Shown here: positions 3,838-14,263 of the stretch, in pieces
Position numbering within the stretch: position 1 is the first letter of the stretch
Layout of the letters: every line of letters starts with the position of its first letter
The notes under the pieces: generated by a model
What the model was told of the DNA's origin: nothing
Seen by the model: the letters and a program-made list of their open reading frames with translations, nothing else
Databases searched by the model: none
Virus record (IMG/VR): IMGVR_UViG_2667527789_000020
Location: 1 to 19,197 of that record
Direction: 5' to 3' (one strand)
DNA from: a virus
Taxonomy: Duplodnaviria > Heunggongvirae > Uroviricota > Caudoviricetes
Length of the DNA: 19,197 nt
Translations under genes and position numbers: made by a program

Positions 3838-4026
3838 TTATCCAGCCGGTATTTCGTTATTCAGGTACAGCGATACTTTTTTTAACGGGAGGCATTCGCC
3901 AGAAATTTTTTGCTCGTCTCTTGCACGGAGGCATGATTCTTTACTGGCATAAATTCCGGTAATCACATTCTGTGGCTCACCCGTTATAAGAAAAACAGTC
4001 ATTACCAGTGCAAATGCAGAAGTCAC
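3838..4026 (-). CDS. Small hypothetical protein with a hydrophobic N-terminal segment (YdfD-like position after dicB)
   Basis: GTG at 4026 overlaps the dicB-like stop (GTGA); alternative in-frame ATG at 4002. Hydrophobic stretch FALVMTVFLITG. Same strand and tightly coupled within the leftward operon. Identity unknown. Confidence 0.35.
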   Translation of the reverse strand: MTSAFALVMTVFLITGEPQNVITGIYASKESCLRARDEQKISGECLPLKKVSLYLNNEIPAG

Positions 4027-4211
4027 TGCTGCCCCCCGAAAATACCAAGTTTAAGAAGGGCAATTCTGGAGAGTATGGAATTATCATTGAGAAGATAAGG
4101 CTCATATTTTCTCATCTTAATGGCATCTTCAGTAAACTCCCGGTTACTGAGCAGAATACCAATATCAAAACACCCTTCAGACGTATTAACGTTTGGTAAT
4201 AACGTTTCCAT
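4023..4211 (-). CDS. dicB: Cell-division inhibitor DicB homolog (62 aa)
   Basis: METLLPNVNTSEGCFDIGILLSNREFTEDAI... closely matches the N-terminal half of E. coli Qin DicB as I recall it (MKTLLPNVNTSEGCFEIG...FTEDAI), and the length is identical. ATG at 4211 preceded by GAGGA with a 7-nt spacer. Confidence 0.75.
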   Translation of the reverse strand: METLLPNVNTSEGCFDIGILLSNREFTEDAIKMRKYEPYLLNDNSILSRIALLKLGIFGGQQ

Positions 4212-4221
4212 TATCGCGTCC

Positions 4222-4806
4222 TCAACAATGAATTTTTAGTAATTGCTCCACAGTCATATTTTTAATTGCGCTCCGGTTTACAAGAGTCCAGCCTTGTTTC
4301 TCCAGATAAAACTGGAAGGTATCCAGGGTGCAGACCATTGCACCATCAGGAACGGTTTCAGTGAATTTGATATTGCCGTGTTCGTCGAGACGGATAACCA
4401 GGGTACGTCCGTCCCCGTGAATCATTTTGTCGGGAGACGGGGCGTTATTCTGGCGCAGTTCTTTCTCCATGCGATCGAACTCAGCGATGTAGGCTTCTTT
4501 AAATGCAGCGGCTTTTTTGCCGGTGAAGCCCATCACCAGGAAAACGAAGCCGTTTTTGGTGATTTGGTACATAGGGAGTTTGCGCCCGGTTGAGTCGGTA
4601 TATTCACTGGGCGAAAAATTTCGCTCAGTGAATTCTGCTGAACAGTCTAGACGTGAAATTTTTGCCAGTACATCTTTGTGTGGTTTCCGGAAATACTCGG
4701 CAACAGCTAAAGAGGATGTAACAGCACGCCCATTGGCGATAGTAATTTCAGGGTGAGAAAGGGCAGGGATAGTAGCCATGATGGCAGCCTCCATGATGAA
4801 TTTCAT
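4222..4806 (-). CDS. Rha-family phage regulatory protein (antirepressor-like)
   Basis: Core ITIANGRAVTSSLAVAEYFRKPHKDVLAKISRL...MYQITKNGFVFLVMGFTGKKAAAFKEAYIAEF is typical of the Phage_pRha domain. The six-frame ORF extends to 5073 but the first ~90 codons are compositionally non-protein-like and contain a terminator-like hairpin. Likely start is ATG at 4806 (SD-like GGTGGTGAG upstream) or ATG at 4779 (GGAGG, 8-nt spacer). Confidence 0.7.
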   Translation of the reverse strand: MKFIMEAAIMATIPALSHPEITIANGRAVTSSLAVAEYFRKPHKDVLAKISRLDCSAEFTERNFSPSEYTDSTGRKLPMYQITKNGFVFLVMGFTGKKAAAFKEAYIAEFDRMEKELRQNNAPSPDKMIHGDGRTLVIRLDEHGNIKFTETVPDGAMVCTLDTFQFYLEKQGWTLVNRSAIKNMTVEQLLKIHC

Positions 4807-4943
4807 TAACTCACCACCGGAGGTAGCAATCTCATGGGTGGTGAGACGCACAGGGTTGCTACAACCGGTCATCATGGAACCCGGCCAGCCTTGCGGCTGC
4901 CCTGCACGCCCCACCATAATCTGAATGTGGCTGTGCATTACGC

Positions 4944-4968
4944 ATAAAAAAACCGCCTGAGCGCGGTT
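4944..4968 (-). terminator. Candidate Rho-independent terminator on the minus strand
   Basis: Minus-strand RNA would form AACCGC / GCGGTT stem (6 bp, 6-nt loop) followed by a 7-U run (plus-strand A7 at 4946-4952). Lies between the DicF-like element and the Rha start. Confidence 0.4.
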
Positions 4969-5264
4969 ATGCGCCATGATGAACATCGGGGTAGCAATCC
5001 CGGCACCCGCTTTATGAGGTGCAGGTGCACTATAATTCCACCCGTTCTGGTTTTCAATAGCTACATTCAACATTTTCTCTTACCTTTCATCACCGAAGTG
5101 AACTTTGTCGATGCAGTGCCTGGTGCCTCCAGGTGACGTTAACCAGTTAACAATTAACGCCGGAATACAGAAGTATGCCCGTTACGCCCCGTAAAAGACC
5201 ACTTTACGGTTTTAACTGTTCCGCGTGCGCTTAGCCGCATTCACCGCATCACAAAATTCACTTT

Positions 5265-5322
5265 AAAAAGGGCGGACATCAGAAAGCTAATAAACTGATG
5301 CCGCCAAAGGTACCACTGCCAT
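5265..5322 (-). ncRNA. dicF: DicF-like small RNA candidate with intrinsic terminator
   Basis: Minus-strand transcript ...ACCUUUGGCGGCAUCAG-UUUAUUAGCUUU-CUGAUGUCCGCC-CUUUUU: an 11-bp GC-rich stem (one bulge), 12-nt loop and U5 tail. The UUUGGCGG.AUCAGUUU and CCGCCCUUUUU segments resemble E. coli DicF as I recall it. Lies in the same operon and upstream of the dicB homolog, as in Qin. The 5' end is not defined. Confidence 0.45.
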
Positions 5323-5590
5323 TGAAACATGGAGATGTTGTGGCGGGGTTGTCACTCAGGCATATGGTCAACCTGACAACCCGGTGTCCTCAATGAGGGG
5401 AAAAGAAATAAAAACCCCCAGCCATATTTACCGCCGCGCCATTTCGCGGATTGCCACAACCGGAAGCACACGGTCGAAGAAATCTAACGACAAGCCTTCT
5501 AAGGGAAAGAGCTTCGCCGTGCGCTTTCGTGTTATACCCTGACTTTTCAGGGTAAATTAACCAGTGGCAACCTGTTTTTACTGGTGCTAA

Positions 5591-5743
5591 TCAGTTAGTG
5601 TTTCTGGCTAACCAGCGACGCGCGCCAGCTTCGGTTTTAAACTTTTTACTTTTGGTATACGTCATCGCGGTAAACGTGCCGTCCTGGTTAGGGAACACAC
5701 CACATACCAGAGATTCGTTGTTGCCAAGATTGAGCGTATCCAT
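5591..5743 (-). CDS. Small protein (50 aa), YdfA/YdaF-like (DUF1391-like) first gene of the leftward operon
   Basis: ATG at 5743 preceded by GAGG with a 5-nt spacer (TGAGGTCAACATG). The six-frame ORF extends to 5797, but that upstream start has no RBS. Product MDTLNLGNNESLVCGVFPNQDGTFTAMTYTKSKKFKTEAGARRWLARNTN. Family assignment is from position and vague recall only. Confidence 0.5.
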   Translation of the reverse strand: MDTLNLGNNESLVCGVFPNQDGTFTAMTYTKSKKFKTEAGARRWLARNTN

Positions 5744-5923
5744 GTTGACCTCATTTCCCCTTAACGCCGGGGTAGCGGAACAAAAAACCTGCTGCATAGT
5801 TAAACGTAATCCCCGCCGTCATGTTCATACGCCTCAGGCTGGCTACTTAACCCCTGACCACTGCCGGGTAACTCGAAGTATTGCCCTGCGTTCTGTGGGG
5901 CGGGGTGGGTTTATGGATACAAT

Positions 5924-6006
5924 TTACAAATTAAAATTTAACTGGTCAACATGTTTATTATTAAATTTGTAATTGCGAGCTGTTGCATTAGTCCCAAAAT
6001 GGGACT
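5924..6006. promoter_or_regulatory. Candidate operator/promoter region (OL-like, divergent leftward promoter and higBA promoter)
   Basis: AT-rich. Inverted repeat TTACAAATT (5924-5932) / AATTTGTAA (5964-5972), and a second perfect palindrome AGTCCCA-aaa-TGGGACT (5990-6006) immediately upstream of higB. The TTACAAAT half-site recurs in the repressor/cro intergenic region. Confidence 0.4.
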
Positions 6007-6017
6007 ACTATACAGTT

Positions 6018-6320
6018 ATGAAGATTATCTCAGTTAAAACACTCAGGGATTTTTGGGCGGAGAATCCTGATGCAGAACAACCGCTAAGGGCATGGGTGGA
6101 TGAGGCGGCAAAAGCTGACTGGAAAAGCCCAGCAGACATTAAGGCACAATACCGAACGGCCAGTATATTGAAAAACCGGCGCGTGGTATTCAACATAAAA
6201 GGTAATCATTACCGTTTAATTGTTGCAATTGCGTATCAGCGAGGATGGGTATTTGTTAAATTCATCGGAAACCACAAGGAATACGATGCTATTGATGCTG
6301 ATACCATCGAACTGGAGTAA
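6018..6320 (+). CDS. higB: Type II toxin HigB (RelE/ParE superfamily mRNA interferase), 100 aa
   Basis: ...VVFNIKGNHYRLIVAIAYQRGWVFVKFIGNHKEYD parallels E. coli HigB (VFNVGGNELRVVAMV...HKEYD). Directly followed by an HTH antitoxin gene 2 bp downstream. The six-frame ORF starts at a TTG at 5973; ATG 6018 is preferred. Confidence 0.85.
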   Translation: MKIISVKTLRDFWAENPDAEQPLRAWVDEAAKADWKSPADIKAQYRTASILKNRRVVFNIKGNHYRLIVAIAYQRGWVFVKFIGNHKEYDAIDADTIELE

Positions 6321-6322
6321 GC

Positions 6323-6682
6323 ATGAACATCAAACCTATTCGTACAGAGCAAGATTATGAAGCCGCGTTGCGTGCTGTTGAACCCATGTTCGACAATGAG
6401 CCCGAAATTGACACGCCTGAGGGGGATTTTTTTGAGGTGATGTGTTTGCTAATAGAGGAATATGAAAAAAAACATTATCCCATTGAGCCACCATCCCCAA
6501 TTGAAGCTATAAGATTTCGCATGGAACAGCAGGGGCTGACTGTGAAAGATTTGGAACCCGCAATTGGGAAAAAAAATCGGGTTTATGAGGTGTTGAATGG
6601 TACCAGAAGCCTTACGTTACCAATGATTCGCCGTCTTCATAATCAATTTGGTATCCCCCTGGAAAGCCTGGTTGGATTATAA
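6323..6682 (+). CDS. higA: Antitoxin HigA (XRE-family HTH), 119 aa
   Basis: Acidic N-terminal part and C-terminal HTH (LTVKDLEPAIGKKNRVYEVLNGTRSLTLPMIRRLHNQFGIPLESLV). Toxin-first gene order with a 2-bp spacing is typical of higBA. Confidence 0.85.
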   Translation: MNIKPIRTEQDYEAALRAVEPMFDNEPEIDTPEGDFFEVMCLLIEEYEKKHYPIEPPSPIEAIRFRMEQQGLTVKDLEPAIGKKNRVYEVLNGTRSLTLPMIRRLHNQFGIPLESLVGL

Positions 6683-6697
6683 AATCTGCTAGTCATT

Positions 6698-6746
6698 TGC
6701 CTGATGCTCGTTCCAGAAAAGGAATGCATCAGGCAGTTTTGTTTTT
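6698..6746 (+). terminator. Rho-independent terminator after higA (convergent with the repressor 3' end)
   Basis: TGCCTGATGC (6698-6707) pairs with GCATCAGGCA (6726-6735), with an inner TTCC/GGAA stem, followed by GTTTTGTTTTT. Overlaps the stop codon of the minus-strand repressor gene. Confidence 0.6.
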
Positions 6747-7121
6747 CTGCCGCAGTAACTCTTCAAGTTTCCGTTTATAGAAATCGCGTTTTTGCTCCAT
6801 ATCACGAATGATCTGCTCTGCGTCGCTTTGAGGTAACTCATCTAAAAGCGATATGATTTTTCGTTGTTGTTCTGTAAGTTGCGGTTGGTTGTCATTACTG
6901 GATACAGCCATTTTATCGCCGAGAGTTTCTTCTTCCATAAAGAACCAATGGACGGGATGTTGTGAGAGCTCTGCTAATTTTTCCAGTTTATCCATTCTTG
7001 GCATCACGCCTTTCAACCAACCTTGCACGGATTGGGGTTTTACACCAAGACGTCTTCCCAGCTCTGACTGGTTTATATTCAATTCCTGCAACACCTGCTG
7101 AAGGCGTTTTACAAAGATCAT
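6729..7121 (-). CDS. DicA-like prophage repressor (N-terminal XRE HTH, C-terminal coiled-coil), 130 aa
   Basis: HTH LQQVLQELNINQSELGRRLGVKPQSVQGWLKG, then a charged helical tail (EQQRKIISLLDELPQSDAEQIIRDMEQKRDFYKRKLEELLRQ) with the same architecture as DicA. No S24 peptidase domain. ATG at 7121 preferred (GAGGGG, 5-nt spacer) over the in-frame GTG at 7127. Divergent from the cro-like gene. Confidence 0.8.
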   Translation of the reverse strand: MIFVKRLQQVLQELNINQSELGRRLGVKPQSVQGWLKGVMPRMDKLEKLAELSQHPVHWFFMEEETLGDKMAVSSNDNQPQLTEQQRKIISLLDELPQSDAEQIIRDMEQKRDFYKRKLEELLRQKNKTA

Positions 7122-7176
7122 CACCACCCCTCGTAAACTAGTTCCGCGATCCTACAGAAAAAATTGATAAGTGGCA

Positions 7177-8028: not shown

Positions 8029-9039
8029 ATGGCCGCATTACCATACATGCAACTGTACATAGCTGATTACCTAGCTGACACCATGCATTTGTCCGCAGAG
8101 GAGCACGGTGCGTATTTGTTGCTGATGTTCAATTACTGGCAAACAGGGAAACCAATACCTAAAAACAGGCTGGCAAAAATTTCCCGTCTGACTAACGAGC
8201 GATGGGCTGATGTGGAACCATCCTTGCGGGAGTTTTTTTGCGATAACGGCGATGAATGGGTGCATCTTCGGATTGAGGAAGATCTGGCATCAGTCAGGGA
8301 AAAATTAACCAAAAAATCAGCCGCCGGAAAAGCATCTGTTCAGGCCAGAAGAAGCAGAAAGGAAGCATATGTTCAAACAAAACAAGAGAGAGATTTAACA
8401 GGCGTTCAAACAAATGTTGGTGTTGTGTTTGAACATGACGCAAACACAAAAGCAACTAATAAAGATACAGATCTAAAAGAATTAAACCCCACACATAACG
8501 TGCGTGAACGCGAGAGTATTCCGACCAGTGAGTCGCATGGTGCGCCGTTGCAGACAGCCGAACCTGAATACCTGGACGGCCTGAGCGAACCGATCGGGAA
8601 ATTTTCGATGACCACTGTCTGGCAGCCGTCGCCGGATTTTCGACAACGGGCAGCAGTGTGGGGTATGGCTCTGCCTGAGCCGGAATTTACACCTGCTGAG
8701 CTTGCCGCATTCCGGGATTACTGGATGGCGGAGGGGAAGGTTTTCACACAGGTTCAGTGGGAGCAGAAATTTGCCCGCCACGTGCAGCACGTCAGGGCAC
8801 AGGTAAAACCAGTCAGCAAGGGGGGAAGCCATGCAGCATCAGGTGGCACGGCATCACGGGCAATTCAGGAAATCCGGGCAGCACGCGAACAGTGGGAACG
8901 AGACAACGGATTTATCAGCAACGGAAACGGCCTGGAAGCTGTGGGAGCTTATGGGGGAGGTGTATTCGAACCGCTGGACTCAGAAGAACGGGGCCGCACC
9001 TTCGAAGCTCTGGATTGCCCAGATTGGTGCGATGACTGA
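8029..9039 (+). CDS. Replication initiation protein, YdaU-like (DUF1376 N-terminal domain, DnaT-like C-terminal region)
   Basis: ATG at 8029 preceded by GAGG with a 5-nt spacer; the six-frame ORF starts at a TTG at 7975. N-terminus YMQLYIADYLADTMHLSAEEHGAYLLLMFNYWQTG is the DUF1376 signature. C-terminal half (SMTTVWQPSPDFRQRAAVWG...FTPAELAAFRDYW) resembles DnaT-like domains. Confidence 0.7.
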   Translation: MAALPYMQLYIADYLADTMHLSAEEHGAYLLLMFNYWQTGKPIPKNRLAKISRLTNERWADVEPSLREFFCDNGDEWVHLRIEEDLASVREKLTKKSAAGKASVQARRSRKEAYVQTKQERDLTGVQTNVGVVFEHDANTKATNKDTDLKELNPTHNVRERESIPTSESHGAPLQTAEPEYLDGLSEPIGKFSMTTVWQPSPDFRQRAAVWGMALPEPEFTPAELAAFRDYWMAEGKVFTQVQWEQKFARHVQHVRAQVKPVSKGGSHAASGGTASRAIQEIRAAREQWERDNGFISNGNGLEAVGAYGGGVFEPLDSEERGRTFEALDCPDWCDD

Positions 9040-12912: not shown

Positions 12913-13138
12913 GCTGGCCTGAGGCCTTCTCAAATGTTGGTATTGCAATGGCGCTGGTGGTGTATTCGATTTGCCGCTGGGGATAAAAACGGTTTGCGGG
13001 GAAAGAAGAGTTAAGTAGAATTGCTGCGGGTGCCTGAGGCTGTCTGCCTCAGGCATGAACACCAAAAGGCAGATAGAGAAAGCCCCAGTTAACATTACGC
13101 GTCCTGTAAGACGCTCAACATTAATCTGAGGCATATGG

Positions 13139-14263
13139 ATGCGGATGAAAGAATTAAATAAATTCAGAGTGATAGACCTCTTTTGTGGGGCAGGTGGATT
13201 ATCTTATGGTTTTCTTCATGGAGAGATGTCTGACTACTTTGAAAGTATCCTTGCTATTGATAATAATGCTGCAGCTATAAATACCTACAATGCCAATTTT
13301 GGTTTGCATGGAGTTCAGGCAAATATTGAGGAGTGGGCATCCAGCAATACTGTTCCTGAGGCTGATGTGGTCATAGGTGGCCCCCCGTGTCAGGGATTCA
13401 GTTTATTGAATAAGAATCGTTATGGTGATCACCGAAGAGCATTGTGGGAGCCTTATATGGATGTCATTGAGCGTTCAAGGGCTTGCATGTTCGTCATGGA
13501 AAATGTCCCCGGATTGCTGATAAGCGATGAGTTTGCGGACATTACGTTTAGAGCGAAATCCATGGGCTTTATTCTGCTTAATCCAATGGTGTTGAATACT
13601 GCTGACTATGGAGTACCTCAGACAAGAAAACGAACGATAGCAATCGGTATCAAACGAGAACTCTTCGATGAGCATAGTATTCCGGCGTTCCCGCCAGCAC
13701 CAACGCATCGTTCCCCTGATAAGGATGTCGCTTTGCCTGAATGGGTCTGTACGCGTGATGCAATTGGTGACTTACCTGCTCCTGTTGGAACTGATATTCG
13801 TAATGAACTTCCTCCGCTGAACTTACATTTTGGGCGTAATCCCACACCTGTTTCTCTGGAGCGATATAAAGCGGTTCCACCAGGAGGTAACCGTTTCGAT
13901 TTACAGAAAAAAAGACCTGATATAACCCCGGCGTGCTGGCTAAAAAAGAAATCTGGAGGGACCGATTTGTTTGGACGTCTGTGGTGGGACAGACCTTCAG
14001 TAACGATTCGTACTGAGTTTTTCAAACCGGAGAAAGGGCGATATTTACATCCGGAAGAGGATCGGCCAATAACTCATCGTGAGGCAGCGAGATTAATGTC
14101 TTTTCCTGATAATTTCATTTTTACCGGTTCAAAAACTGAGATTGCAAAGCAGATCGGGAATGCTGTTCCACCGCTATTTGCGGCAAAAATCGCACAATAT
14201 GTGTATGGAGTTTTGCAGGGACGGTATAAGAATAACATCAGTAAGAATAGTCAAGCAGCCTGA
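13139..14263 (+). CDS. DNA (cytosine-5)-methyltransferase, modification subunit of a Type II R-M system (374 aa)
   Basis: Motif I DLFCGAGG (FxGxGG), motif IV GGPPCQGFS (catalytic PC), motif VI ENV, motif X-like QIGNAVPPLFAAKIA. ATG preceded by GAGG with a 7-nt spacer. Visibly more AT-rich than the flanking phage genes. Confidence 0.9.
   Translation: MRMKELNKFRVIDLFCGAGGLSYGFLHGEMSDYFESILAIDNNAAAINTYNANFGLHGVQANIEEWASSNTVPEADVVIGGPPCQGFSLLNKNRYGDHRRALWEPYMDVIERSRACMFVMENVPGLLISDEFADITFRAKSMGFILLNPMVLNTADYGVPQTRKRTIAIGIKRELFDEHSIPAFPPAPTHRSPDKDVALPEWVCTRDAIGDLPAPVGTDIRNELPPLNLHFGRNPTPVSLERYKAVPPGGNRFDLQKKRPDITPACWLKKKSGGTDLFGRLWWDRPSVTIRTEFFKPEKGRYLHPEEDRPITHREAARLMSFPDNFIFTGSKTEIAKQIGNAVPPLFAAKIAQYVYGVLQGRYKNNISKNSQAA

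Follow-up and report, generated by a model that had tools for sequence, protein, structure and literature searches.

The window analysed here is the whole stretch of 19,197 nucleotides from the virus record IMGVR_UViG_2667527789_000020, and it includes the leftward early operon of a prophage, read from the minus strand. Within this operon, the initial annotation had described a coding-poor interval between the 50-aa early gene and the start of Rha. The genes and regions delimiting and filling it were the following:

5743→5591, minus strand: ydfA (DUF1391), the 50-aa early gene, upstream boundary (Pfam DUF1391, 101.8 bits)
5099..5555, minus strand: homologous to the ydfC-dicF-dicB region, a long untranslated part of the Qin dicBF operon in K-12 (blastn, 80% identity)
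5346..5382, minus strand: hairpin with 9-bp perfect arms (repeat I4), 28 nt ahead of the 5′ end of the DicF-like RNA (inverted repeat, fold z = −1.4)
5318→5265 (allele 5318→5270), minus strand: divergent DicF-like sRNA with terminator hairpin and U-run (RF00039, 36.4 bits)
5111..5249, minus strand: dicF-dicB spacer with a weak STnc100-like match, split here by the cassette insertion (RF02076, 29.1 bits vs. gathering score 47)
4239..5098, minus strand: cassette of about 860 bp, absent from K-12, between dicF and dicB (blastn breakpoints and junction sequences)
4222..4779, minus strand: rha, Rha-family regulatory protein of 185 aa with revised start ATG 4779 (Pfam Phage_pRha, 106.6 bits)
4023..4211, minus strand: dicB, the next gene of the operon, downstream context (Pfam DicB, 122.5 bits)

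The upstream gene was 87% identical to K-12 ydfA, and a DUF1391 CDS is annotated there by RefSeq in a 99.4%-identical genome. At the other end, Rha had been taken to start at ATG 4806, which was not conserved among the homologues and was abandoned in favour of ATG 4779, so that the non-coding stretch became 4780–5590. The gap proved to be real, as this stretch held no gene under protein-level selection and the 283-aa mechanical ORF found there lacked a coding substitution pattern. Moreover, all the features that had been listed in it were recovered where they had been placed. It is highly probable that 4780–5590 represents two minus-strand RNA parts within the leftward early operon of the prophage, namely the dicF region and an inserted cassette.

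The first of these parts, 5555→5099, was aligned by blastn to K-12 positions 1649154–1649591 with 80% identity and long identical blocks, K-12's ydfB and ydfC being missing here between 5600 and 5555. In K-12, the dicF region is a long untranslated stretch of the dicBF operon, and the 5′ end of DicF is produced by RNase E (PMC5069750). The DicF-like RNA lay at the position of K-12 dicF in the alignment, between the ydf genes and dicB, and its hairpin and T-run were present at 5305→5265 as previously proposed, with a fold of −17.5 kcal/mol (z = −3.5) followed by UUUUU. Its match to RF00039 (36.4 bits, E = 6e−6) fell below the gathering score of 48, compared with 76.7 bits for K-12 and 71.5 bits for the homologous locus L009, and it diverged from K-12 DicF in the 5′ arm and the loop. 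In particular, the K-12 loop UUUUACUCCGUGACUG (which pairs with ftsZ, 3′ region) was replaced here by UUUAUUAGCUUUCUG. In a crude energy test, the duplex predicted with the K-12 ftsZ start was no better than those of shuffled sequences (−32.5 vs. a shuffled mean of −29.4, sd 4.6), while K-12 DicF reached −38.5 vs. −30.8 in the same test. The full-length allele was rare, appearing in 5 of 5426 E. coli genomes.

Other elements of the dicF region were also considered. The 9-bp perfect inverted repeat reported at 5346–5354 and 5374–5382 was present, with the same arms in the pre-dicF leader of K-12; since the arms were identical in K-12, phage Tritos and L009, there was no covariation to score. 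A further conserved hairpin appeared at 5554→5535. The plus-strand hairpin also exists (5189–5209, with TTTT), being weak (fold z = −1.4), missing from K-12 and facing no evident convergent transcript, so that it was rejected as a terminator and is probably insignificant. The identity of the spacer with STnc100 was likewise discarded, the sub-threshold match corresponding to the ordinary dicF-dicB spacer, as the K-12 spacer also matches RF02076 (34.4 bits). Regarding small ORFs, ten of 21–52 aa on both strands of 5099–5590 were checked and gave no Pfam match, and none was preserved in all of K-12, Tritos and L009. Nine were rejected because the start or frame was lost or stops were gained in K-12, Tritos or L009, and the best one, a 39-aa ORF with a GTG start (5471→5352), because of an in-frame stop in L009 and the lack of an SD.

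The second part is the cassette, which lies between the two copies of an imperfect direct repeat of 10 nt, ACAAAGTTCA at 5108→5099 and TAAAAATTCA at 4238→4229. Its order is promoter, IsrK, C4, C4 target sites and Rha-family gene, and the elements ahead of the gene were as follows:

5057–5029, minus strand: sigma-70 promoter-like site, TTGAAA, 17-nt spacer and TATAGT (10 of 12 consensus matches)
5022→4946, minus strand: IsrK sRNA, the a1/b1 leader (RF01394, 64.7 bits vs. gathering score 50)
4997→4991, minus strand: site a1, UUGCUAC, in the loop of IsrK hairpin 2 (7-nt exact complement of a′)
4982→4974, minus strand: site b1, UCAUCAUGG, after a1 in IsrK (9-nt exact complement of b′)
4968→4951 (stem) and 4952→4946 (U7), minus strand: IsrK intrinsic terminator (terminator-like pattern and Rfam match)
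4921→4834, minus strand: C4 antisense RNA (RF01695, 77.9 bits vs. gathering score 45, full-length model 1–87)
4878→4869, minus strand: segment b′, UCCAUGAUGA, in the loop of C4 hairpin B (exact complements b1 and b2)
4862→4856, minus strand: segment a′, GUAGCAA, single-stranded in C4 (exact complements a1 and a2)
4829→4823, minus strand: target site a2, UUGCUAC, inverted repeat I1, 4 nt past the C4 match (7-nt exact complement of a′)
4818→4810, minus strand: GGUGGUGAG, complement of CUCACCACC at 4845→4837, the 3′ strand of the stem that closes C4 (inverted repeat I3, 9 nt, 100% complementary)
4799→4790, minus strand: target site b2, UCAUCAUGGA, overlapping the rha SD GGAGG at 4792→4788 (10-nt exact complement of b′)

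The cassette was found in 3050 of the 5426 E. coli genomes (matching places per genome: median 2, maximum 9) and in 221 phage records, viable phages included. The same arrangement, with the cassette between dicF and dicB, appeared over at least 80% of 4200–5800 in 317 of these genomes. The additional small RNAs that had been suspected in the gap were borne out by an Rfam scan, as IsrK and the C4 antisense RNA, both above their gathering scores, were found beside the DicF-like RNA. The IsrK match spanned model positions 1–77, and its MFE structure showed three hairpins, the last being the terminator with its U-run, which is the second minus-strand terminator of the initial annotation. Moreover, RF03163 (c4-a1b1) overlapped the 5′ half of IsrK, with 19.6 bits here and scores above threshold in L013, P1 and Gifsy-1. 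In all of the 14 homologous loci retrieved, IsrK was followed by C4 about 25 nt on.

From the promoter-like site, which lies exactly upstream of the 5′ end of IsrK, transcription is predicted to start at about 5022. It should be noted that matches to the terminator and promoter patterns were not more numerous than expected by chance (2 found vs. 1.9 expected), so that their meaning rests on homology. In this respect, the promoter position was shared by the hexamers of 15 homologous cassettes, the annotated P1c4 of phage P1 and the TTGCCT/TATAGT of P4.

The MFE structure of C4 coincided with the Rfam structure, with a long closing stem and two hairpins (−46.3 kcal/mol, z = −3.5). Its ends were kept as in P1 (5′ AUUAU/GGUGGGG and the 3′ tail CACCACC), and maturation of C4 from a longer transcript, as in P1, is plausible, in which case the mature RNA would span about 4915→4837. 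Such RNAs are matured by RNase P in P1 and P4. Of the antitermination or processing signals formerly suggested for the gap, processing stands as plausible by homology, while antitermination does not, no boxA-like site being present in the region. Downstream of C4, GGUGGUGAG might provide another way of pairing before the transcript is processed; across 15 aligned cassettes, GGTG (4815→4812) was invariant and T 4816 nearly so.

Covariation was examined in a set of 15 cassettes from phages, chromosomes and one plasmid. The 27 pairs in the three stems of C4 were 100% paired in the 15 sequences, and 11 of them had changed on both sides. Pairing between partners was also maintained, with 98% for a1:a′ (6 of 7 pairs compensatory) and 97% for b1:b′ (8 of 9); 0 of 500 shuffles attained the values observed, and slid controls were 38–45% paired. 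For b′:b2, 90% was paired (8 of 9 compensatory). Although its sequence changed, the cognate a′/a2 match persisted throughout the 15 cassettes as well as in P1 and P4, and each C4 fitted its own targets far better than it fitted the targets of other loci (30.0 vs. 16.8 in summed match length). Overall, the C4 segments, the IsrK sites and the rha-side sites covaried three ways across the 15 cassettes, P1 and P4.

With respect to the cargo, the SD GGAGG (4792–4788) precedes ATG 4779, and this SD-ATG pair was kept by P4 and by 13 of the 15 cassettes aligned. Furthermore, GGAGGCUGCCAUCAUGGCUAC was conserved in P4 and in cassettes whose cargo genes differ, where it precedes the gene, and the third-position divergence excess started only downstream of ATG 4779. 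Other cassettes carried Rha, P4-epsilon-type Derepression (PF25738), Icd-like or ORF6N genes as cargo. Here, Rha is presumed to be an anti-repressor. Gifsy-1 AnrP was considered as its orthologue and rejected, the similarity being C-terminal only and weak (E = 0.007), with no homology over the Rha domain or the N-terminus.

Taken as a whole, these results are very probably best explained by a self-contained RNA immunity system of the type of P1 immI, P4 immunity and Gifsy-1 isrK, in which IsrK would act as a decoy leader. The DicF allele would end upstream of the cassette in its own intrinsic terminator, and the site at 5057–5029, which we infer to be a constitutive promoter, would start transcription at about 5022. 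Most transcripts would presumably end at the IsrK terminator, giving the 77-nt IsrK, while those reading through would reach C4 and rha. Folded C4, with its long closing stem and two hairpins, would expose b′ in a hairpin loop as well as a′; a′ could then pair with a2 just past C4 and b′ with b2 over the rha SD, leaving Rha untranslated. With identical copies of the targets (a1 and b1), IsrK would compete for C4, so that a rise of IsrK relative to C4 is predicted to turn Rha translation on. In this scheme, the direction of the regulation, C4 processing and the role of Rha as an anti-repressor are drawn from P1, P4 and Gifsy-1.

A mechanical ORF of 283 aa (4222–5073, minus strand) covers 4780–5073, and its aa 14–109 (5034→4747) matched PF10554 Phage_ASH with 67.4 bits vs. 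a cutoff of 26. In a genome 99.4% identical, this ORF is what RefSeq calls as the CDS of Rha. Despite both the Pfam match and the CDS, no conserved protein gene was established in the stretch, and the 283-aa 'Rha' ORF and the 'Ash' domain are very probably translations of these RNA genes. Nevertheless, the cargo frame was stop-free in 11 of 12 lambdoid-type cassettes, with 1 stop vs. 11.8 expected from a column-shuffle null (0 of 2000 shuffles were as low), and this depletion makes some translation through the RNAs possible. A tentative and rather unlikely reading is a dual use, in which the lambdoid cargo frame would be kept stop-free through two sRNA genes, a promoter and a terminator, the peptide itself not being conserved. 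Under it, ribosomes may load upstream on early-operon transcripts, as at ATG 5073 or in the upstream-gene overlaps of ST64B and mEp460, and read-through translation would melt IsrK and C4 and bypass the RNA immunity. Lytic growth might then yield an N-terminally extended anti-repressor, whereas in a lysogen the internal promoter would produce transcripts that give only the RNAs and remain repressed. As a corollary, the many orthogonal a/b specificities could form an RNA network of cross-talk or insulation between co-resident prophages.

Less probable still is that 4780–5073 is truly coding and Rha a two-domain protein of 283 aa (N-terminal 'Ash' plus Rha), the RNA matches being incidental or secondary; this low estimate also covers its softer version, in which the frame would be translated from upstream operon transcripts with an irrelevant peptide sequence. 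Besides the RefSeq calls in near-identical genomes, the PF10554 score and the shortage of stops, such a protein is favoured by the AAGAG preceding ATG 5073 and by Gifsy-1, in which orf45, occupying the same interval as C4, is translated and needed for anrP (PMC4825925). However, divergence per codon position was flat in the cassette (0.319/0.345/0.327), unlike in the adjacent Rha domain (0.282/0.270/0.548), and a strong intrinsic terminator lies within the interval, together with a promoter whose position is conserved. Changes were concentrated in the RNA loops, and they were compensated in the stems and between RNA partners. Moreover, the frame was closed or shifted in P1, two P2-like prophages and one plasmid copy (P1, L015, L016 and L017), all of which kept both RNAs, while in L007 and L014 the upstream part of the long ORF overlaps a DUF4222 gene in another frame. 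In P4, the phage that gave the family its name, what PF10554 matched was the old 137-aa 'cI' ORF over the C4-family match, an ORF which presumably overlies the CI RNA gene, the immunity factor of P4 being an RNA; the real P4 epsilon, annotated as 'helper derepression protein', belongs to PF25738 and not to PF10554.

It is very improbable that the region is a decayed, functionless remnant of a cryptic prophage, with ydfB and ydfC lost and the sequence pseudogenised. The absence of these two genes relative to K-12, the divergent and rare DicF allele and the frequently cryptic nature of Qin-type prophages agree with decay, but the structures and intermolecular pairings are upheld by compensatory change across divergent loci, the cassette is widespread in E. 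coli genomes and phage records, viable phages among them, and the dicF leader is 80% conserved with K-12 in long identical blocks. Equally hard to credit are nut- or put-like antitermination signals letting early-left transcripts pass the DicF and IsrK terminators: two intrinsic terminators in series between ydfA and rha/dicB do imply that dicB expression needs some read-through mechanism, and conserved hairpins lie at 5382→5346 and 5554→5535, but no boxA-like sequence was found in 4780–5800 at up to 2 mismatches (the sole match in the window, at 1613, is no more than chance), no Rfam family of such a kind was matched even at E ≤ 10, and read-through of the DicF terminator is known in K-12 with no nut site described (PMC5069750).

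The RNA immunity cassette has consequences for annotation, since the RefSeq calls (the 283-aa Rha and, elsewhere, 'ash family' or 'Icd-like') and PF10554 extend over two RNA genes. This Pfam domain has served as a marker of P4 epsilon (bioRxiv 10.1101/2021.03.30.437493) and has been described as an Ash domain of Rha proteins (PMC8951638); in both uses it seems to detect the RNA cassette instead. The kind of element is already known, an Rfam search accounts for the gap, and P1, P4 and Gifsy-1 have already provided the mechanism. In broader terms, the cassette constitutes a portable switch that exists in many orthogonal specificities and precedes varied anti-repressor-type genes. Being present in more than half of the complete E. 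coli genomes, it is relevant to prophage induction, Stx phages included.

Compared with the Qin dicBF operon of K-12, the order ydfA ... dicF ... dicB was the same, and the pre-dicF hairpin and the dicF-dicB spacer were shared. K-12 Qin has ydfB and ydfC and lacks the IsrK-C4-rha cassette, while the reverse was found here, with the cassette just before dicB.

In P4, the same order and Rfam families were found, with the IsrK model at 8692→8615 (60.8 bits) and C4 at 8507→8420 (74.9 bits), and the immunity region comprises a leader with seqA, the CI RNA with seqB, seqC and then the first gene of the left operon. Sites a1/b1, a′/b′ and a2/b2 were arranged identically, b2 was followed by the same GGAGGCUGCCAUCAUGGCUAC, the N-terminus of the cargo was shared (MAT..SHPE), and an ORF matching PF10554 lay over the RNA as it does here. 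In contrast, the a/b specificity sequences differed, the gap between leader and C4 was longer (about 110 nt vs. 24 nt here), and the genes downstream were a small ORF and then epsilon instead of Rha. Furthermore, immunity in P4 is described as premature termination of transcription that depends on CI, and not as a translational block.

For the immI region of P1/P7 (c4, a1 b1 / a2 b2, icd, ant1/ant2), the mechanism considered here is based on the curated P1 record and the general background on this phage. The order in this record is promoter, a1, b1, c4, a2, b2 at the SD and first gene, with the same geometry from the start site (some 25 nt to a1 and some 40 nt to b1) and an identical scheme of cognate complementarity. 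P1 C4 scored 68.8 bits and c4-a1b1 51 bits, while the IsrK model matched the leader, terminator-like hairpin included, with 35 bits, which is below its gathering score. In the record, c4 is annotated as a processed 77-nt RNA, and b2, at the equivalent position, as 'repression of icd ant translation', the cargo being an anti-repressor. On the other hand, the first cargo gene in P1 is icd, translationally coupled to ant, whereas b2 directly precedes rha here; no reading frame is open across c4 in P1, unlike here; and a second promoter of P1 is under C1 control and has an operator, no operator having been identified here.

Finally, in Gifsy-1 (isrK-orf45-anrP), IsrK (79.3 bits) had a C4 match (69 bits) directly after it and a putative anti-repressor gene next, the published 'orf45' interval between isrK and anrP being the C4 match. 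In this system, IsrK shows partial termination, binds Hfq and activates in trans the translation of the downstream gene, that of anrP rising about 140-fold, and the RNA STnc1160 is processed from 'orf45' (PMC4825925). The pairs G28:C162 and G31:C159, verified with the compensatory mutants G28A/C162U and G31A/C159U (PMC4825925), fall in the a1:a′ helix mapped here. These experiments are consistent with the mechanism proposed for the cassette. However, the authors' account involves orf45 translation, which was detectable and required for anrP expression, together with alternative cis structures, and not a processed trans-acting C4 (PMC4825925). That text contains neither 'phage P1' nor 'RNase P' and apparently does not draw on the P1 c4 system. 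There, the C4 interval is regarded as a small ORF, with a stop that overlaps the start of anrP (PMC4825925), whereas here the same frame is fused to rha, and the Gifsy-1 cassette lies beside antQ in the late region instead of in the early-left operon. IsrK, the a1/b1 leader of P1 and the seqA leader of P4 are one homologous element and Gifsy-1 'orf45' is a C4 RNA, and this shared identity of leader and C4 provides a single framework for three mechanisms that had been described separately.

The window is a lambdoid, Qin-like Escherichia coli prophage, whose region 4200-5800 is present in a deer isolate with 99.4% identity and, over at least 80% of its length, in 317 of 5426 complete E. coli genomes. 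Its leftward (minus-strand) early operon reads, 5' to 3', ydfA/DUF1391, a coding-poor stretch, rha, dicB, a DUF1482 gene, a RecE-type exonuclease and an integrase. The coding-poor stretch combines two known things, namely the untranslated region of dicF and a C4 RNA immunity cassette of the P1/P4/Gifsy-1 type guarding a Rha-family gene. The locus was previously unannotated, the kind of element being already known. The suggestion of the initial annotation that additional small RNAs might be encoded there was right, as an Rfam scan yielded IsrK and C4 above their gathering scores. The main features are as follows:

5743->5591, minus strand: ydfA/DUF1391
5057-5029, minus strand: promoter-like site, TTGAAA-17-TATAGT
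5022->4946, minus strand: IsrK match, 64.7 bits against a gathering score of 50, beginning 7 nt past the -10 hexamer
4921->4834, minus strand: C4 antisense RNA match, 77.9 bits against a gathering score of 45
4878->4869, minus strand: b', UCCAUGAUGA, in the loop of C4 hairpin B
4862->4856, minus strand: a', GUAGCAA, single-stranded, after C4 hairpin B
4211->4023, minus strand: dicB

Beyond this operon, the RefSeq annotation of a near-identical genome places a HigB-family toxin and HTH antitoxin pair on the plus strand (5973-6682), flanked on one side by the early-left operon and on the other by the cI-like repressor gene (6729-7127, minus strand). A match to the Rfam sok antitoxin at 13028-13208 on the plus strand (61 bits, gathering score 59) points to a hok/sok-type toxin-antitoxin locus there.

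Comparison with K-12 Qin by blastn assigned 5781->5600 to ydfA, 5555->5099 to the K-12 sequence that starts 113 nt past ydfC, spans dicF and stops shortly before dicB (80% identity), and 4236->4107 to the start of dicB. Both ydfB and ydfC of K-12 are absent from the window; these genes (about 500 bp in K-12) are replaced by about 45 nt at 5555-5600 carrying a CCAGU...ACUGG hairpin. Furthermore, about 860 bp are inserted relative to K-12 directly before the dicB ribosome-binding site (about 5098->4239), flanked exactly at the K-12 breakpoints by an imperfect 10-nt direct repeat, ACAAAGTTCA / TAAAAATTCA (5099-5108 / 4229-4238), the final five rha codons lying within sequence common to the K-12 pre-dicB region. 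The inserted cassette comprises, in this order, the promoter-like site, IsrK, C4 and rha.

In K-12, RNase E generates the 5' end of DicF, and either termination or RNase III the 3' end (PMC5069750). The homologue in the window (5318->5270, minus strand) scored 36.4 bits, below the gathering score of 48; it retains the UUUGGCGG.AUCAG core, and its terminator hairpin is stronger still (-17.5 kcal/mol, z = -3.5), the hairpin and T-run previously reported being found at 5305->5265. It is called DicF-like rather than DicF because of this low score, a 5' arm and loop unlike those of K-12, the rarity of the full allele (5 of 5426 genomes) and, in a crude duplex-energy test, a pairing with the start region of ftsZ predicted to be no better than for shuffled sequence. 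The other signals noted initially were likewise confirmed at the positions given for them: a perfect 9-bp inverted repeat (5346-5354 / 5374-5382), which lies in the dicF leader 28 nt upstream of the DicF-like RNA and has identical arms in K-12, phage Tritos and another E. coli; a plus-strand hairpin with a T-run (5189-5209); and the minus-strand terminator (stem 4968->4951, then seven T's). Consensus scans by themselves were not above chance (2 sites vs. 1.9 expected). A weak STnc100 match at 5249->5111 was taken as the ordinary dicF-dicB spacer, since the K-12 spacer gives the same match.

The C4 minimum-energy fold reproduces the Rfam consensus, with a 17-bp closing stem around two hairpins (z = -3.5). 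Following the site names of the curated P1 record, b' exactly complements UCAUCAUGG in IsrK (b1, 4982->4974) and UCAUCAUGGA at 4799->4790 (b2), which overlaps a GGAGG (4792-4788) placed 8 nt ahead of ATG 4779. Likewise, a' complements UUGCUAC both in the loop of IsrK hairpin 2 (a1, 4997->4991) and four nt past C4 (a2, 4829->4823). Moreover, the b specificity of this cassette (UCAUCAUGG) coincides with the near-invariant CAUCAUGG around the rha start codon (4776-4783), so a third 8-nt C4 target lies directly on the AUG, a target absent from the other specificity types in the sample. In addition, GGUGGUGAG (4818->4810), whose GGTG core is invariant in all 15 cassettes, perfectly complements the closing stem of C4 on its 3' strand (4837-4845), suggesting that the mRNA may fold differently before processing, an idea also put forward for Gifsy-1.

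The cassette sequence (4770-5065) matched 3050 of 5426 E. coli genomes, the number of places per genome having a median of 2 and a maximum of 9. It also matched 221 phage records, among them Stx phages, ST64B and mEp460. A total of 14 homologous loci (67-88% identity) were fetched, all of them with IsrK followed by C4 about 25 nt further on, and the downstream cargo gene varied between Rha, 'ash family', Icd-like, P4-epsilon-type derepression protein and ORF6N. The promoter hexamers and GGAGGCUGCCAUCAUGGCUAC (SD, spacer and start codon) are positionally conserved before these different genes. The Rha start is therefore ATG 4779 and not 4806 as initially proposed, an ATG that is not conserved in the homologous loci, and the coding-poor stretch becomes 4780-5590.

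In an alignment of 15 sequences, the C4 stems were 100% paired with many compensatory changes, and the pairing reached 98% for a1:a' (both partners changed in 6 of 7 pairs), 97% for b1:b' (8 of 9) and 90% for b':b2 (8 of 9). None of 500 shuffles reached the observed values, and slid controls gave 38-45% pairing. The IsrK terminator helix reached only 69%, owing to the misalignment of two terminator types. What the analysis itself shows are the RNA structures and family memberships, the complementarities with their three-way covariation, and a conserved promoter/SD/ATG geometry. The summed match length of C4 was 30.0 against its own four targets vs. 16.8 against those of other loci, and the a-types, at least seven in number, combine freely with the b-types, of which there are about a dozen. 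One locus, from E. coli AREA_504, carries two complete IsrK-C4 cassettes in tandem (258-446 and 914-1102 of that locus), differing in both a and b specificities and each preceding its own anti-repressor-type gene, so that co-resident cassettes look orthogonal.

By analogy with P1, P4 and Gifsy-1, C4 would be excised from the read-through transcript, its conserved 5' junction AUUAU|GGUGGGG and 3' tail CACCACC resembling P1, and would mask the ribosome-binding site of rha by means of b' and a'. The short IsrK would titrate C4 and thereby switch on translation of Rha, a putative anti-repressor.

The initial claim that no credible ORF exists held for the ten small ORFs of 5099-5590, none of which had a Pfam match; nine were not kept in the three relatives compared, and the tenth (39 aa, GTG start) has a stop in one of them. 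It needs one correction, a mechanical 283-aa ORF (4222-5073, minus strand) that covers 4780-5073 and that RefSeq annotates as the Rha CDS. A real protein domain in 4780-5073 could be read from the Pfam match of PF10554 'Phage_ASH' to amino acids 14-109 of this ORF (67.4 bits), but the match (5034->4747, minus strand) coincides exactly with IsrK, C4, the target sites and the opening 11 codons of Rha, and with the same elements in four other loci. Codon-position divergence argues against such a domain, being flat in the cassette (0.319/0.345/0.327) with a third-position excess in the Rha domain (0.282/0.270/0.548). Moreover, the frame is closed in P1, two P2-like prophages and one plasmid copy, all of which keep both RNAs, and in two phage-type loci the upstream part of the long ORF overlaps a DUF4222 gene in another frame. 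In P4 (NC_001609, 8168-8584), PF10554 matches the old 137-aa 'cI' ORF over a C4-family match, while P4 epsilon ('helper derepression protein') belongs to PF25738. PF10554 appears to be a conceptual translation of the IsrK-C4 RNA cassette. The same RNA genes underlie the RefSeq entries named 'ash family protein' or 'Icd-like protein' and the 'Rha' CDSs that are called too long.

Nevertheless, the cargo frame is stop-free through the cassette in 11 of 12 lambdoid-type cassettes (window 4780-5073 and 11 homologues, alignment A1), with 1 stop observed vs. 11.8 expected and none of 2000 shuffles as low, a significance that is overstated because the column-shuffle null ignores phylogeny. The other two frames fit the null (49 and 31 stops vs. 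50.7 and 30.8 expected). This depletion may reflect a need for ribosome read-through and would fit Gifsy-1, where anrP expression requires translation through 'orf45' (PMC4825925). Thus, a dual use of the RNA cassette is retained, in which the cargo frame may be translated with the peptide itself irrelevant.

The same arrangement recurs in the known systems. The curated P1 record lists promoter P1c4, a1, b1, c4 (77 nt), a2, b2, icd and ant1/2, with b2 annotated as 'repression of icd ant translation', and the P1 leader scores 51 bits with c4-a1b1 and also 35 bits with the IsrK model, the latter match including a terminator-like hairpin. In P4, the leader matches IsrK (60.8 bits), and the element that follows, the P4 CI RNA, matches C4 (74.9 bits). 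The a and b sites of P4 follow the same scheme as those of the window, and its b2 precedes the very same GGAGGCUGCCAUCAUGGCUAC, with an N-terminus MATTLTPSHPEF vs. MATIPALSHPEI in the window. Gifsy-1 presents isrK (79.3 bits), a C4 match (69 bits) exactly at the published 'orf45', from which the processed RNA STnc1160 derives (PMC4825925), and then anrP. Its IsrK arises by partial termination and raises anrP translation in trans about 140-fold, and the compensatory pairs G28:C162 and G31:C159 map to the a1:a' helix as assigned here (PMC4825925). That article appears not to draw on the P1 c4 system, since neither 'phage P1' nor 'RNase P' was found in its full text, and a 2025 review gives IsrK and c4 as separate entries. 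Useful by-products of the analysis are the annotation error in the RefSeq CDS and PF10554, the stop-codon depletion and a unified view of IsrK and the C4 leader: we infer that IsrK is homologous to the leaders of P1 (a1/b1) and P4, all three being a single element that acts on C4 by mimicking its targets.
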